Assembly: GCA_003990765.1 (NCBI GenBank)
Contig: RBNJ01000201.1
Location: 1 to 36,778, forward strand
Direction of reading: 5' to 3'
Length of the DNA stretch: 36,778 nucleotides
DNA from: Jimgerdemannia flammicorona
Taxonomy: Eukaryota
Of this stretch, positions 6,204 to 28,929 are shown piece after piece. The number at the start of each line of letters is the position of its first letter. Positions within the stretch are counted from its first letter, which is position 1. The notes under the pieces were generated by a model. It had not been told where the DNA came from and did not search any database. It worked only from the letters and a program-made list of their open reading frames with translations. The position numbers and the translations under genes were made by a program.

Positions 6204-8820
6204 TTAATTGGCAACTGCTCGCTGTTTACTCTTTGGCGTAGGCGATAGTGGCGTCAAACTGGTCGGCTGCGTCCTTCGATTTTTTCTGGGCGACCAGAAT
6301 GAATCTGAGTCGTGCAGTATCTGTGTTGTGCTCTCTTCTTTGATTTTTTGAAGTATTTGGAGAACGTAACGGAACCGAGCCTATTATCAAAAAAAAAAAA
6401 GTTTAAGTCTTTAGTACCACAAACATGCAAAACTAAATCCTCTCTCAACTAACTTTTAAGGCAAGGAACCTCGCCAATGACTTAATAAGAAGATCATAAG
6501 AGTCAAATTTCTGGGGCAACTCGAATCGAAACAGCTCACCGAAGCGGTATACACCTGAGCAGGGCAAGTCCATAGCGTATACCCGTCCCTCGAGCCCTAA
6601 TAATATGGAACCAAAAAAAAAAAGTTGTTAAAATCCCGTGCCCACACGTAGCTTTGCATAAATATCAAACGTACCGGATGACAATATTCCAAAGACCTCC
6701 ACCTCCGTGATTCGTTGCTTTTGGTCCCCAGGAAGCCACTTGTAGATAAAATCGACTTGGTCTTTTAGAGCTTTTGCGAGTTTGTAATGATCTGATAGTA
6801 GCTTGGTTTGACCTTCCACGCTGTCCTGTCAGCCAGCTTCCATTGTCAATAGCTCCAACCGCCAAGTATCTCTTGTCAATATGGCAGCGTCCAGCTTCGT
6901 CGCTGCTAGCTTGGTCTCGCCATGTTGCCGCTGAGAGTTTTTCCGATAACTAACGGCCCGAGACGCCTTTTCACCTCTTTTAAAAAATTTTATAAGGGCT
7001 TTCGTTGATAATTTCATTCCCCTGTTAAGACAAAATGCATTTACCTTACGACCCGAACCTCCGGAATATCGAAAAAAAGTCGATCAACCAATTGTCCGTA
7101 AACGTGTACTTGCAAAAAGCCTTCTGTGGTGGAATCGTCTAGAAGTGGATTGACAGTTTGCTCGACCATTGAAACACTGTCCAAGGTAGAGAGTAGAGAT
7201 GTCAGTGCGTTTCAATCTTCAGATTAAATTTGCGAAAACAAATTCAAGGGAAACGTGCAAATTTCGAATCACTGTATGGATATATTCGAGATCGTAATGA
7301 ATTTTGACGTTGTAGGTATCCTCGGTGTATGACCTCGAACATCCGCTATGCTCGACTGAAAGAGATCGTTGACAGTTGGTTTAAACGTTTTAGCGCAGCA
7401 TCATGTGACTTTAATGCTACTTCTTACCATTCGCAGTGACGCCAAATACTCTTTAGCTTTCTTACTAGGAAGAAAATCCCGCCATTTTGCATCCCATTCT
7501 GTTTCGATTTCATCCCACAGATCTTCATCACCAAAATCGCTGCGAATTGGTGCATCAGCAATCCTAAGGATATGGCATTTCGCGAATCTGATCCAAAAAG
7601 CATGAGATCAGCAAACAAATTGAATAAGCCATAAACGCGGCAGGATGTAAAACTTACATGTCTTCTGTAGTCTCTCTGTAATCGGCAAACAACTCACTCA
7701 TATTTCTCCCGTCGGAGAGAATCCACTGAGCAACAGCCTTTCCATCGGCTTTGATATCTATTCTGTCAAGCTTTGGCGCGTGCGAAATGTTGATGCCGTT
7801 GATCACCGAAAGCTCTTCTAGGTCAACTAGAGAGTGTTCGGGAGTTACCTCAGAATTTCCTTCTTCTGACACGTTAATGCCAGGCTCGATCGATCCTTCT
7901 TGAGATATGTCAGTATAGAGACCGGTATCTGATGGCTCCAGATCTCCAGAGGAGGAAATATGATGCTTGAAGGGTTCGGAGATCCAGTTTACCCTCTTCT
8001 CGGGTGGCGGATTGTCATAGAGATTCAGTACATTTCTTTCTTCTTGATTCAGCGATGCAGACGTCAGACTTAGAGCGATCCCATCAGCCTTGCGTTTAAC
8101 CGATCTCTAAGTCAATAAAGAAAATTAACTCCACGCTAGCGGATAGCAAAACATCTTATAAATAAAGAACAGATAAACAACTCACGCGCTGTTCTGAGAG
8201 ATGATTTTCCTCCATAATTCGTCTCCAGAAACTTGCAGCTTGGTCATCACTCTCATCGGCTGTAGGAAGAGAGTCATTTGAGTAGTGGTATGTCAATGCA
8301 ACCCGACTCATGCATGACAGACTATACAACAAGGGAACGAAACCCTATTCCACTAGCAGCGGACGAAACGGTGCACGGGATGTGGCAAGCGTCATACATG
8401 AAGAAGTCAGACCACAAGGGAACGAAACCCTATTCCACTAGCAGCGGACGAAACGGTGCACGGGATGTGGTTTGCTTCATGTGACGGGCAGAAAGACATA
8501 TATTTCATTTAAATTTAAAGTGGCTCACCTCTTTCTAATATTTTCGCGGCACGGTCTCGTCGAATCGAGTCATGTTCCTCTGATATTCTTTTTACTACAG
8601 TAAGAAATCTTTTCTTCCAGATGCCGTTGGTGTTCCGATTAACATTATGGGGTGTATGAACAATTATAGGCCTAACCACAGCTTCAAGGAGCCTTCTTCT
8701 CAAAGTACGCGTTGATCATCGTAGCTACGTAATGTAATTAGGAAGGAAAACCAGAATCAGAGATGAACAGGGATCAATGATTAACAGAGCTGATAATTTA
8801 CCATAGTTTTCGTACGACAT
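6204..8820 (-). pseudogene. Multi-exon pseudogene of an expanded Mucoromycota/Glomeromycotina family with a predicted PD-(D/E)xK-like nuclease fold
   Basis: Spliced reconstruction: MSYENY...GIWKKRF...FWRRI...HYDLEYIHTVIRNF...EGFLQVHVYGQLVDRLF...RGEKASRAVSYRKN...KLDAAI...ELLTMEAG*QDSVEGQTKLLSDHYKLAKALKD...VFGILSSGLEGRVYAMDLPCSGVYRFGELFRFELP...RAVAN*. In-frame TGA at 6829-6831 and apparent frameshifts near 8690 and 7335. Confidence 0.7.
8329..8470 (+). repeat. Perfect 57-bp direct repeat (8329-8385, 8414-8470) inside an intron of the pseudogene
   Basis: ACAAGGGAACGAAACCCTATTCCACTAGCAGCGGACGAAACGGTGCACGGGATGTGG occurs twice. Confidence 0.95.
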
Positions 8821-23925: not shown

Positions 23926-25056
23926 TCACCTTCTCGGTCTTGGCTTGACCACATAAGGATTAGGATGCTTCCTCGTCTTCCCACCCTTCGCCAACACGCC
24001 CCACGGGCTTCTCGGATCCTTGTTACCCTTCGACTTGCCCCTACCACCGCCGTGCGGATGGTCCACGGCGTTCATAGCCACACCTCTCACCGATGGCCTC
24101 CACCCCATCCACCTTCTCCTCCCCGCCTTTCCCAAGGTCTCGTGTTGGTGGTCCGGATTCGATACTGACCCGATGGTCGCGCAGGCCTCGACAGGGACGC
24201 GACGGGTTTCGCCGCTCGACAGACGCAGTTGGGCGTAGCCGGTTGTGCCCGTCTGGATCAGCTGCGCGTACGTACCGGCGGAGCGGGCCATGATGGCGGG
24301 ACCTCCGCGGCGCAGGCCGATGTTGTGCACGGTCATACCGACGGGGATCATGCGCAGCGGCATGCAGTTGCCGATGTCGACAGAGACGGTGCGGGTGATG
24401 TCGCTGTTGTCGTTACCATCACCACCATCACCATCACCAGTTCCGCCGATGACACCAGCAATGTCACCCACCCCTTCACTACGGTAGCTTCTCACCCGAT
24501 CCCCGGGCGCCAAGTTGTGGGGCGCGACAATGTAGCTTAGTTCACTATTGGCATCATTCTTGAGCAGTGCGATCCAGGCAGTCCTCCCCGGGTCGTATTC
24601 GAGGCGCTGCACGGTATGTGTACCTGGTCCAAAGCGATTCCAGTCAATAATACGAATGCGGCGCTTGTGCCCGCCGCCGCGATGGCGGATAGTAATATAG
24701 CCGTGGTTGTTGCGGCCGCCCTTGGAGCGCTTGGCCTTGGTCAGCATACGGATTGGCTTGCCCTTGTGAAGATGGTCGCGGGGCACGCGTTTGAGCCAGC
24801 GTTTGCCTGGCGTGGTAGGCTTTTTCGTCTTAAACTGATTGGAGGGGCGGGCGGGGCGGTCGGGTGGGGGAGGGGGGACGGGGTCGACGAGGGAGTTGGG
24901 TGTGGTAATGCGGGCGGGGACGGACTTTATGGCATATGTGCGGACCAAGGGCGTGAAAGGCCTACAAGACTGAAAAACAGGTGGGGATCTTGTGATCTGG
25001 GCGAGAGTTGTCCGCACGGCCTGCAGGGGCCGGGACAGCAAGTTGAGGCGTAGCAT
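23926..25056 (-). CDS. RML2: Mitochondrial ribosomal protein uL2m (single exon, with presequence)
   Basis: GGRNNHGYITIRHRGGGHKRR, EYDPGRTAWIAL and RGVAMNAVDHPHGGG motifs; Arg/Ser-rich N-terminal presequence from ATG 25056. Confidence 0.96.
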   Translation of the reverse strand: MLRLNLLSRPLQAVRTTLAQITRSPPVFQSCRPFTPLVRTYAIKSVPARITTPNSLVDPVPPPPPDRPARPSNQFKTKKPTTPGKRWLKRVPRDHLHKGKPIRMLTKAKRSKGGRNNHGYITIRHRGGGHKRRIRIIDWNRFGPGTHTVQRLEYDPGRTAWIALLKNDANSELSYIVAPHNLAPGDRVRSYRSEGVGDIAGVIGGTGDGDGGDGNDNSDITRTVSVDIGNCMPLRMIPVGMTVHNIGLRRGGPAIMARSAGTYAQLIQTGTTGYAQLRLSSGETRRVPVEACATIGSVSNPDHQHETLGKAGRRRWMGWRPSVRGVAMNAVDHPHGGGRGKSKGNKDPRSPWGVLAKGGKTRKHPNPYVVKPRPRR

Positions 25057-25113
25057 GGTGAAGAAGCCACCCTCGACGCCATCCAAATAAGAGGGATCAA
25101 CACAACATTGTCG

Positions 25114-25121
25114 TGACGTCA
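25114..25121. promoter_or_regulatory. CRE/ATF palindrome TGACGTCA in a 134-bp divergent promoter (uL2m / PEN-2)
   Basis: GTGACGTCAC lies centrally between ATGs at 25056 and 25191. Confidence 0.5.
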
Positions 25122-25190
25122 CCTCTCAACCCACCAAATCACCTTAGACTGAGGCAAGGATTCGCTCTCGACTTCACATTCATCATCATA

Positions 25191-25593: not shown

Positions 25594-25752
25594 AACCGTA
25601 AAAAGTGTGAGTTTGGAAGAATCCGCATAATAGATAGCTCGATACAAAATGTGTTGGGGACGCGCTTAGTTCTGGAGGACTGATGGCATGCCTGATCGAG
25701 AAAGTATATTCGCTCTTCGAAGCCCTTTGTAAATATGTCTTACCTATTCTTT

Positions 25753-25827
<75 letters not shown>

Positions 25828-26346
25828 CGCTTTGTCTAAACTTAAAATATTGTGCTCATTGTTCGGGTTTCTCTGAGATATCAACAGCTAGAAGTGTACC
25901 ATAACACCTTCAGGCTAAGATAAAAAAAACGGTTATATTATTATGTATCGAGGTTCAATAGTACAACATGCGCTATTTGACTAGCTTCGCAACACAGATT
26001 TCATTGAAGAAAATAGACTCCCACACAGAACGTAGACCATAATAAGCTTCACAGAGAACACGAAATGTATATCATAGAAAGAAACAATGACGAACAAAAT
26101 TGACTACAAGAAGCAATACGATCAAAATGTTTATGGGAAGTGTTATATACATGATAGGAAACGACGGGTCAGAGATGGGATGCAGGGTTGCACCAACTAC
26201 GAACTGTATGGGCAAAATTCCACAAAGCGAAGTGAGCCTCGCAAAAAGGTATATGCAAAACAACACAATACTGTTCGCCAGGAATCCTAACGTCATTAAC
26301 ATCGCTTCATGCTCCATAGAGGACAAGTTCCATTCCCCCCGCATAA

Positions 26347-28480
26347 TTATTTCTTGGCTTTCACGGGCGCCTTCTTGGTTGTTGCCATACCCTGCGCAAA
26401 TGTCGAAAATTTCATGATCGCAAGAATTGAGCCACCAGATGCTGTTCGATCCGAAAAAATATTGCTACAACATTGAGGTAGGAAGAGATATGCAAACCTT
26501 CCGCATCACCAGTAAATCGTTCATAAGATCTTCTTCCTTAAGACCGAAAGTGAATGGGGGAGGTAATCACCCCGAAGAGAAAGAGCGAACCGCATTAGAT
26601 GAGATCGACGTTAAGGATAAGGTATCTCGATGTCCCGGCTCCTACGTACAATGCAATCTTCTAAAATATAATGTGGTCCATGTATGTATCCACCCCAAAA
26701 CAATAATCATACGACATGCAAAAAGGATATCTTGCAGCTGCCTCTTCTTGCTAGCCTTCGTCTCGTTTTGTTCCATTCCACGCTTGCGCAGATTTCGCTT
26801 GTGCATCCGCGTTTGGGACTCAATGACAACGTCTATGGCGATTTGCACATTTACGAAGAGAAATGTGTGAGTGACTTATGAAGGAGACATGCGTTACAAA
26901 AACATAAACTGAATGGCTTTGCACGACAATCGCACGAAACATCCTGCCGGTCTCGGGCATACCGTTAGATATATCCAAGTTATCCTTGTCTTCCTTCAGC
27001 TTCTTGCGTCGCTCCTCAACCCCAGCGAGCATCTTCTCTCGGAGACCTTGCTTCTCAGCCTGATTTACGAGTAAACACATATAAAGAGGTACACGATGCC
27101 CTCAGTTTACTTGGATGAACACATTCGTCCGCCCCACGAATGAATGTCAATCTAACCCAAATCATACACTTCGGCATACCATGTACTCTTCCTCGGCCTG
27201 TTTCGTCTCAAGTTCATATTGATTCCCGGCGCACTCGAGCTGGAAGTTGCGGAAGAGCCGCTTCTGATCGATCATCGTATCGCGCGTATCCTCCAGGTCC
27301 GCGAGCCGCTCAAGAAACTCGGGTTGCGTGCCTGAATATCATGTCGCAAAAAGGCGACACAGTGCGGGAAACGCGGTCGTAAGAATATAGATAAGGTGAG
27401 GCATTACCAATACATACCAAGAAAGCAGCAACATACCGTCCTGTATAGCGCGCAATTCCGACTGAAAGGCTTTCAATTTGTCCGTGTATATCCTGTACGT
27501 CAAGACCCAATACAGTACAGAGTGAATATGTACGTACTATATGTCAAGATGCACAGCCATGACTGTGAACGCGCTTGTTTAGGCGGTTTGGGCGGTTTCG
27601 GCGAACAAAATGGCATCGATGCCTTGATGTCTCGCGATTCAACCACTCTCGATTCTTTGCTGTCCAATATAAAAGTCTGCCAGCTACTCACCTCTCCTTG
27701 TTCTCCATGAATTCTTGATTGAGCCTCTGCATCCTTTCCGTAAATTCCCTCCGTCGTTTGTCTTTTTTGCTCTCCACAACCTCCTGACCCGTTTCTGGAT
27801 AAGAGAAGGTTTGTCAGGAATGAATAGTCGTTAGTTGAAGTATGACACTGCAAGAAGCTTCCACGCCTACCCCATCGCGCCCAAAAAAGCAAAAAGCAAA
27901 CATCACGTCTGTACTCACCATCAGACCATCCCTCCCCTTCCTCATCGTCATCGCCCTCCCCGGCCCCACCACCACCCGACCCAATTATACCATTCAGGCC
28001 TACGTTAATCTTGCTGGAGCCTGACGGCGTGCGGTCCCCAGGCCCACCCCCTCCCATCCCTCCACCGGGACCACCGGGGCCCCCGTAACCGCCCATACGC
28101 TGCGGATCCATGTCCTCGTCGCCGTAGTCATCCTCCCCGTCGTCGTCTCCTTCCAGTCCAGGTTCATGGTAGATGTGGCCGCTCTTGACCAGGCTGCTCC
28201 CTCCATAATAGTGATGGTGGGAATGGTGCTGTTGTTGCGGCTGGTGCACTTGTGTGTGATGGCCACCGGTCATGGGGTAGTGGTGCATGCTGATGTGACC
28301 AGCTGCGGCCTCCAGAAGGTCACTAAAGTCGTTGTCGTCGTCAAGATCCTCCGGTTCGGAGTCGGAAGCGGAGGTGGAAGCCTCGTAGTAGTTTGGGGGG
28401 ACGGCGGAGTGGTGTCGATTTGGACGTTGCTGCTTTGTTGATGGGAGTCTAGTGGCAGCCATCGCTGGAGTAGGGGGCAT
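26347..28480 (-). CDS. SDS3: Sin3/Rpd3L deacetylase complex subunit, Sds3/BRMS1 family (multi-exon, includes a U12 AT-AC intron)
   Basis: KKDKRRREFTERMQRLNQEFMENKERIYTDKL...IQDGTQPEFLERLADLE...LREKML...KLKEDKD...KRNLRKR...QAPPFTFGLKEEDLMNDLLVMRK, with a low-complexity N-terminus. Confidence 0.88.
26563..26730 (-). other. U12-type (minor spliceosome) AT-AC intron, 168 nt
   Basis: 5' splice site ATATCCTTTT, branch site TCCTTAAC (26610-26617) and 3' splice site TTAC. Splicing restores the Sds3 reading frame. Confidence 0.88.
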
Positions 28481-28929
28481 GGAGTAGTTGTTTGTTATTA
28501 TTTTGGGCAAAGAGGGGAAGCTCCTTCGCTGGCTTCTACATCTGGCTCACGGGGAATGATGATGTCATAAGTGGCTTGCCAATTCGACAGACTAATAATT
28601 CAGCACTCACACACGTCCAGATAGCAAATGCCCATGAGAGGATGGAGGGCCTCGCGAAGAAGCCAAACAGGGATATAGGACATGGTGGAACTTTGCTTTC
28701 CTAACGAGTGTCAAACATATAGCTGCATGTCAGTCCAAAGCTTCTAGCCTGACTTCCATTCAACCACTAATAAATTAGAATCGTATGTCTAATATTCCGA
28801 TCAGTCACGTGACGGCTCAGCGACACGTCGCTTTTTAAAATGTTCAGGTCATTGATATAGGTAGAAAATTGTGTTCAAAATTAATTGGAGTCATTTATTG
28901 ATATGATCAATATTTAATTTTCGGGACTA

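Follow-up and report, generated by a model that had tools for sequence, protein, structure and literature searches.

An RNA-validated AT-AC intron with a distant U12-type branch box in an Sds3-family gene of Jimgerdemannia flammicorona

Introduction

Introns of the U12 type are described in two reviews (PMC3584512, PMC8199999) as having the branch adenosine 10–20 nt from the 3′ splice site, with an optimum of 11–13 nt, and the first also states that a polypyrimidine tract is absent from them. Few rules are thought to separate the minor from the major spliceosome in the choice of the 3′ splice site, and such a short and fixed distance from the branch to the acceptor is among them. The rule has been incorporated in the software used to catalogue minor introns. 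In this regard, the branch is searched for between −40 and −5 by Bartschat and Samuelsson (PMC2846911), between −40 and −1 by the pipeline behind the Minor Intron Database (PMC11347168) and between −55 and −5 by intronIC (PMC7367187). Work with human lariats mapped the U12 branch points nearer to the acceptor than the U2 ones (PMC5378181), and the branch predicted by matrix was the one used in 94% of the human minor introns with mapped lariats (PMC11347168).

Outside Dikarya, minor introns are known from Rhizopus, Phycomyces, Rhizophagus and Basidiobolus (PMC10639083 and PMC2846911), and for Rhizophagus 205 minor introns together with all four minor snRNAs have been published (PMC10639083). 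Jimgerdemannia flammicorona, a root fungus, belongs to the Endogonales, within Mucoromycota, and relatives of this fungus carry minor snRNAs according to PMC10639083 and PMC11347168. A preliminary description of the locus, made from the letters of the DNA, had stated that minor splicing is lost in Dikarya and retained in Mucoromycota lineages, which fits with the place of the host in the Endogonales and with the minor introns and snRNAs published for its relatives (PMC10639083, PMC2846911). Moreover, J. flammicorona and Endogone sp. stand in the species tree of PMC10639083, and the survey data behind it may already list the intron described here. Minor introns in early-diverging fungi being known already, this intron is a further case, with one unusual and unproven feature. 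It is a cheap natural test case, validated by transcripts and with a strong donor and a strong branch box, the latter followed by a gap of 48 nt.

A Gene of the Sds3 Family

The window, that is, the whole stretch of 36,778 nt that was analysed, contains a gene for an Sds3-like chromatin regulator whose exons were joined by script to give an open frame and a predicted protein of 393 aa (Table 1). Judged by its homology, the gene is a member of the Sds3/SUDS3/BRMS1 protein family (PF08598). Its exon 4 reaches 27.9 bits with the Pfam Sds3 model, above the cut-off of 25.4, and exon 5 stays under it with 20.7 bits; exon 4 is also 100% identical to two NCBI Sds3-like proteins of J. flammicorona and 82% identical to the Sds3-like protein of Endogone sp. 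FLAS-F59071. In the PDB, Sds3 chains from S. pombe (8i03_G, E = 8.7e-10) and from S. cerevisiae likewise gave matches. As a word-based protein search gave 3–4 relatives only, HMMER was used instead, and it collected 541 Sds3 homologues at E ≤ 0.001. Ten representatives, all of them drawn from the top 20 homologue matches, were named: Calcarisporiella, Bifiguratus, six Mucorales, a Mortierella-type fungus (Benniella) and a chytrid.

Table 1. Positions of the Sds3-like gene, its exons and the elements of its intron 6 in the window
Feature	Position	Strand	Remarks
Sds3-like gene	26350..28480	minus	ATG at 28480; stop near 26350; eight exons, seven introns
Exons 1–4	28480-27919, 27794-27691, 27491-27436, 27330-27179	minus	joints from transcript contigs
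Exons 5–8	27058-26963, 26832-26731, 26562-26497, 26390 to stop near 26350	minus	joints from transcript contigs
Intron 6	26563..26730	minus	168 nt; AT-AC; phase 1; U12-type by donor and branch box
Donor ATATCCTTT	26722..26730	minus	perfect match to the U12 consensus RTATCCTTT
Branch box ATCCTTAAC	26610..26618	minus	8/9 against TTCCTTRAY; top 9-mer of the whole intron
Spacer, branch box to terminal AC	26565..26609	minus	45 nt
Pyrimidine run CTCTTTCTCTTC	26574..26585	minus	12 nt uninterrupted; intron positions −23 to −12
Acceptor TAC/	26563..26565	minus	used 3′ splice site; sequence and transcript joint

When aligned with 27 homologues (28 sequences in all), the spliced protein proved colinear with them over the AT-AC junction, with 0 gaps, and the peptide of exon 7 corresponds to the conserved C-terminal Sds3 motif that follows the coiled coil, including one invariant Asp (D157 of P0001). 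The latter is a J. flammicorona gene model of 176 aa from a different contig, and it already has the AT-AC junction.

Other models of the gene are incomplete. The one that matches the contig (P0002, 221 aa, partial) runs from exon 5 into intron 5 (26833-26962, minus strand) and then ends, so that exons 6–8 and the AT-AC intron are missing from it, and the Endogone model P0003 likewise breaks off around intron 5. As for sequence variation, in run X1 two contigs of exon 4 (27196-27327) differ at 5 of 132 positions, and P0001 and the protein of the window differ in the last exon, which suggests two alleles, strains or paralogues of the Sds3-like gene. Beyond the 3′ end of the gene, long A/T homopolymer runs occupy about 25740-25860, before the next gene. 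A single open frame of 399 aa is found at 23926-25125 on the minus strand, and the C-terminal half of its translation, read by eye, looks like ribosomal protein L2, probably mitochondrial.

Removal of the AT-AC Intron in RNA

Transcript contigs of four public runs were placed on positions 26200-28560. Two of these runs are root metatranscriptomes, and the other two were labelled RNA by guess, yet all introns are absent from their contigs. The joint 26562/26731, which on the minus strand skips 168 nt with AT and AC ends, is present in the contigs of all four runs, from four studies, and a single contig of 2057 nt in run X2 joins all eight exons. On the minus strand, exon 6 closes with CAAG at 26731, the intron opens with ATATCCTTTT at 26730 and closes with GATTAC at 26563, and exon 7 starts with CTCCCCC at 26562. 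The six other introns of the gene all have GT-AG ends in the transcript contigs; in run X3 the joint of intron 5 was placed at 26833/26965 plus one extra letter, which was taken as a variant or an alignment effect.

No alternative joint at intron 6 was reported in the contigs of the four runs. Contig depth was 0 in all four runs for the bin 26595-26673 inside the intron, a measure on which contigs are uninformative as regards intron retention. The runs being contigs, minor products such as those ending at AT or AA 12–17 nt past the branch, or those retaining the intron, could exist unseen. If the intron were kept, the reading frame would end within it, as the stop-to-stop frame 26642..26875 indicates.

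The preliminary description had read here, from the sequence, a minor-spliceosome AT-AC intron within SDS3. The letters are as it stated, the donor is of the U12 consensus, and the Pfam and protein matches agree. Its predicted junction (26731/26562) was recovered from RNA as the only joint reported. Its proposal that splicing yields the conserved C-terminal Sds3 motif is borne out by the alignment of exon 7 with the 27 homologues, and the stop that it placed at 26642 for the unspliced frame is there. Intron 6 is a genuine, RNA-validated AT-AC intron, removed in vivo exactly at 26731/26562. Its reality follows from the presence of the junction in RNA, since the donor and branch motifs alone are no rarer than chance: in the window, ATATCCTT/GTATCCTT occur 2 times against 2.53 expected, and TCCTTAAC occurs 2 times against 1.21 expected.

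Splice Signals and the Class of the Intron

The donor was compared with the U12 consensus as quoted from PMC1635337. The second ATATCCTT of the window (7566-7573, minus strand) was considered as an intron and set aside: it falls within an open reading frame flanked by two ordinary introns, has no branch box downstream, and looks like a chance occurrence. Within intron 6 the core TCCTTAAC, at 26617-26610 on the minus strand, is the sole U12-like branch box. Scores of at least 8/9 against TTCCTTRAY are found at 41 of 73,540 window positions, and the best scores in the six GT-AG introns of the gene are 6–7. Two adenosines of the box are candidates for the branch, 26612 (intron position −50) and 26611 (−49), and counted from the latter, the 3′-most, 48 nt of the intron lie downstream.

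These signals bear on which spliceosome removes the intron. It might be conceived as a U2-type AT-AC intron, or as a hybrid on the way from U12 to U2, taken out wholly or partly by the major spliceosome through the pyrimidine run and a U2-type branch. The 3′ half has indeed a U2-like order, with a CTAAT box, then the 12-nt pyrimidine run and then the acceptor; exon 6 ends with AG, and AG at −2/−1 has been tied to major-spliceosome factors in minor-like introns (PMC11347168); and pipelines that limit the branch box to −40 would not call the intron minor. Such a proposal meets the donor, ATATCCTTT, which is the full U12 consensus, unlike the U2-type AT-AC donors, which are U2-like apart from the A at +1 (PMC1557818), a pattern that it mismatches at +4 to +6. 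It meets also the full U12 branch box that the intron contains, and the combination of AT-AC ends with such a donor is that of the classic U12 subtype. Removal by the major spliceosome is in our view very improbable.

Distance between the Branch Box and the Acceptor

At 48 nt, intron 6 lies outside the norm of 10–20 nt for U12 introns, and it departs as well from the trait of having no tract, with 30 pyrimidines among the 47 nt downstream of the branch box, including the uninterrupted run. The only good branch-site signal in its sequence is thus about 4 times farther from the intron end than in the textbook, and of the three pipeline windows that of intronIC alone would see it. A limited literature search found no paper in which a distal branch had been validated for a U12 intron.

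The spacer is itself peculiar, as its 45 nt contain neither AG nor AC. When the mononucleotides of the spacer were shuffled 100,000 times, 2.7% of the products were likewise free of both; such 45-mers make up 0.8–0.9% of all 45-mers of the window, and none of the 514 in the other six introns of the gene is of the kind; the absence is modestly unlikely, at about 1–3%. The spacer also lacks A residues between −33 and −5. It does have AT and AA dinucleotides ending at −37, −33 and −32, that is, 12, 16 and 17 nt past the branch A, and the contigs make no use of them. AT and AA are the ends of rare natural U12 introns (PMC1635337). The distal box with its pyrimidine-rich, acceptor-free spacer is, at the level of the DNA, a real feature that departs from two textbook traits.

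The box 48 nt from the acceptor with a pyrimidine tract in between had been pointed out in the preliminary description, and it stands at the sequence level as the sole good U12 box. The further claim that the acceptor is the first AC or AG after the box holds for these two dinucleotides, both lacking in the spacer, and fails once the AT and AA ends at 12, 16 and 17 nt are admitted. As a whole, the interpretation offered there is partly supported.

Which Branch Is Used

The reading that we favour, with moderate confidence, is that intron 6 is a minor-spliceosome (U12-dependent) AT-AC intron that branches at the consensus box and then makes a long reach to the first YAC. U11 and U6atac would pair with the donor ATATCCTTT and U12 with TCCTTAAC, the branch being A−49 or A−50, and the second step would join the exon at the first downstream YAC, 48 nt off, passing over the AT and AA dinucleotides at the canonical 12–17 nt. 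A spacer kept free of AG and AC and bearing a pyrimidine run would give the 3′ region a layout of the U2 type (branch, pyrimidine tract, acceptor) with signals of the U12 type. Ordinary U12 splicing at the consensus box appears the most likely course because the donor is perfect, the box is strong, 94% of the human cases set a precedent and the spacer is free of AG and AC. The point against it is that 48 nt break the functional constraint of 10–20 nt stated for U12 splicing. It is moreover a reading of a single intron, in which the use of the branch is predicted from sequence. An Rfam search of the window (36,778 nt) returned zero matches, to minor snRNAs or otherwise.

The same distance rule that opposes a gap of 48 nt would favour a U12-type intron branching at a weak nearer site, either A−34/−33 in TCTAAT, 32–33 nt from the end, or a residue other than adenosine, with the TCCTTAAC box serving for the initial binding of U11/U12 only, or being a relic. 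In this line, CTAAT fits the loose U2-type motif CTRAY, and for some minor introns whose branch sequences are U2-like, the U2 snRNP has been reported to aid splicing (PMC8848931). Scanning of the 9-mers that would place an A at 5–40 nt from the intron end gave a best score of 5/9, which is what TCATCTAAT reaches against the U12 consensus, and this site, 32 nt from the end, is also outside 10–20 nt. With no A from −33 to −5, and strong minor-type boxes used in 94% of the mapped human minor introns (PMC11347168), a nearer branch seems to us unlikely.

A further way to reconcile the consensus box with the rule would be structural, the branch being in the TCCTTAAC box and RNA hairpins, one taking up about 25 nt after it and a second with the AC in its loop, shortening the path to an effective 10–20 nt. 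Path-shortening structures of this kind are said to operate in those yeast U2 introns that have distant branch points. The minimum-energy fold of 26625-26553 does put 25 nt past the box in one hairpin, and in it a stem between GGGG (−11 to −8) and the CCCC of exon 7 leaves the AC in a loop. Yet the stability of this fold is at chance level (z = −0.61; 50 of 200 shuffles at least as stable), and the whole intron is predicted to be less stable than its shuffles (z = +1.57; 193 of 200 at least as stable). In these folding calculations RNA structure does not rescue the 48-nt distance, and we regard a solution through hairpins as quite improbable.

Branching at the consensus box followed by a long reach, if true, would mean that the distance rule is not universal and that some fungal minor introns are misclassified; if false, intron 6 would show how a consensus box can be bypassed. 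One may go a step further and propose, tentatively and as something rather doubtful at present, that in Endogonales, and perhaps in fungi more widely, the minor spliceosome is free of the 10–20-nt rule and searches for the first YAC or YAG with the help of a pyrimidine tract, like the major spliceosome. Were such a relaxed rule true, the U12 distance would be a habit of lineages, with no mechanical limit behind it, and pipelines confined to 40 nt would under-count the minor introns of fungi.

Age and Distribution of the Intron

A metagenome scan with P0001 as query found no relative, and the scan with alignment A2 gave 5 loci. Four of these cover the site (one Mucorales-like, two Mortierella-like and one of unknown lineage), the fifth (L005) stopping short of it, and by tblastn an intron at the position of intron 6 is absent from all four covering loci, since the junction region is encoded without interruption. 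The metagenomic contigs also carry U12-like donor strings (ATATCCTTT, ATATCCCTT) at L001 1486, L001 1193 and L003 437, in Mucorales-like and Mortierella-like sequence, none of them in the Sds3 gene.

On the animal side, SUDS3, BRMS1L and BRMS1 of human and mouse are listed as minor-intron genes in the supplement of Olthof 2019, which gives the donors as CAG/ATATCCATT for SUDS3, CAG/ATATCCTTT for BRMS1L and CTG/GTATCCTTT for BRMS1; a figure legend of PMC8280824 names minor intron 7 of SUDS3. With intron 6 a fungal gene joins this family, in which each of the three human members has a minor intron, and this is useful for dating the intron. The three human introns sit, as we presume, just before the same conserved C-terminal motif. 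From these comparisons of sequence, the probable ancestor of intron 6 is an ancient U12 intron in the Sds3/SUDS3/BRMS1 family. It is plausible that Endogonales retained this old intron and that other Mucoromycota, including the sampled Mucorales-like and Mortierella-like fungi, lost it, because the human and mouse members of the family are listed with minor introns while the four covering metagenomic loci are without one. Given these four intronless loci, intron 6 may instead be a lineage-specific gain.

Comparison with Known Introns

The closest relatives of intron 6 are the canonical U12 AT-AC introns known from animals, from plants and from early-diverging fungi such as Rhizophagus irregularis, Basidiobolus, Phycomyces and Rhizopus (PMC10639083, PMC2846911), with which it shares the ATATCCTTT donor, the TCCTTAAC box, a YAC acceptor and phase 1. 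Like them, it is a single minor intron whose neighbours are GT-AG, in a gene that encodes a conserved nuclear regulator, here in a fungal lineage outside Dikarya. It differs from them in having 48 nt and not 10–20 nt between branch and acceptor, a 12-nt pyrimidine run in that interval, and AT and AA ends that are skipped.

Within the same protein family, the last exon base is G in human SUDS3, BRMS1L and BRMS1 as in the fungal gene, a likeness taken from 12-nt donor strings, and SUDS3 and BRMS1L have donors of the AT type, as intron 6 has. The human minor introns of the family are about 1 kb long (1004 nt in SUDS3), against the 168 nt of intron 6.

In U2-type introns whose branch points are distant, the acceptor is preceded by a zone without AG. 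PMC1557818 mentions distant branch points in U2 introns, and what introns of this kind share with intron 6 is the succession of a distant branch, a pyrimidine-rich and acceptor-free spacer and the use of the first acceptor; they differ from it in that the donor and the box of intron 6 are of the U12 type and its ends are AT-AC. The minor introns of Physarum polycephalum (bioRxiv 10.1101/2020.10.12.336362) are, like intron 6, off the animal and plant norm in their 3′ signals. In Physarum the branch motif has changed to TTTGA, with a U12 snRNA that co-evolved, and the distance is a tight 9–12 nt, whereas in intron 6 the motif is canonical and it is the distance that differs.
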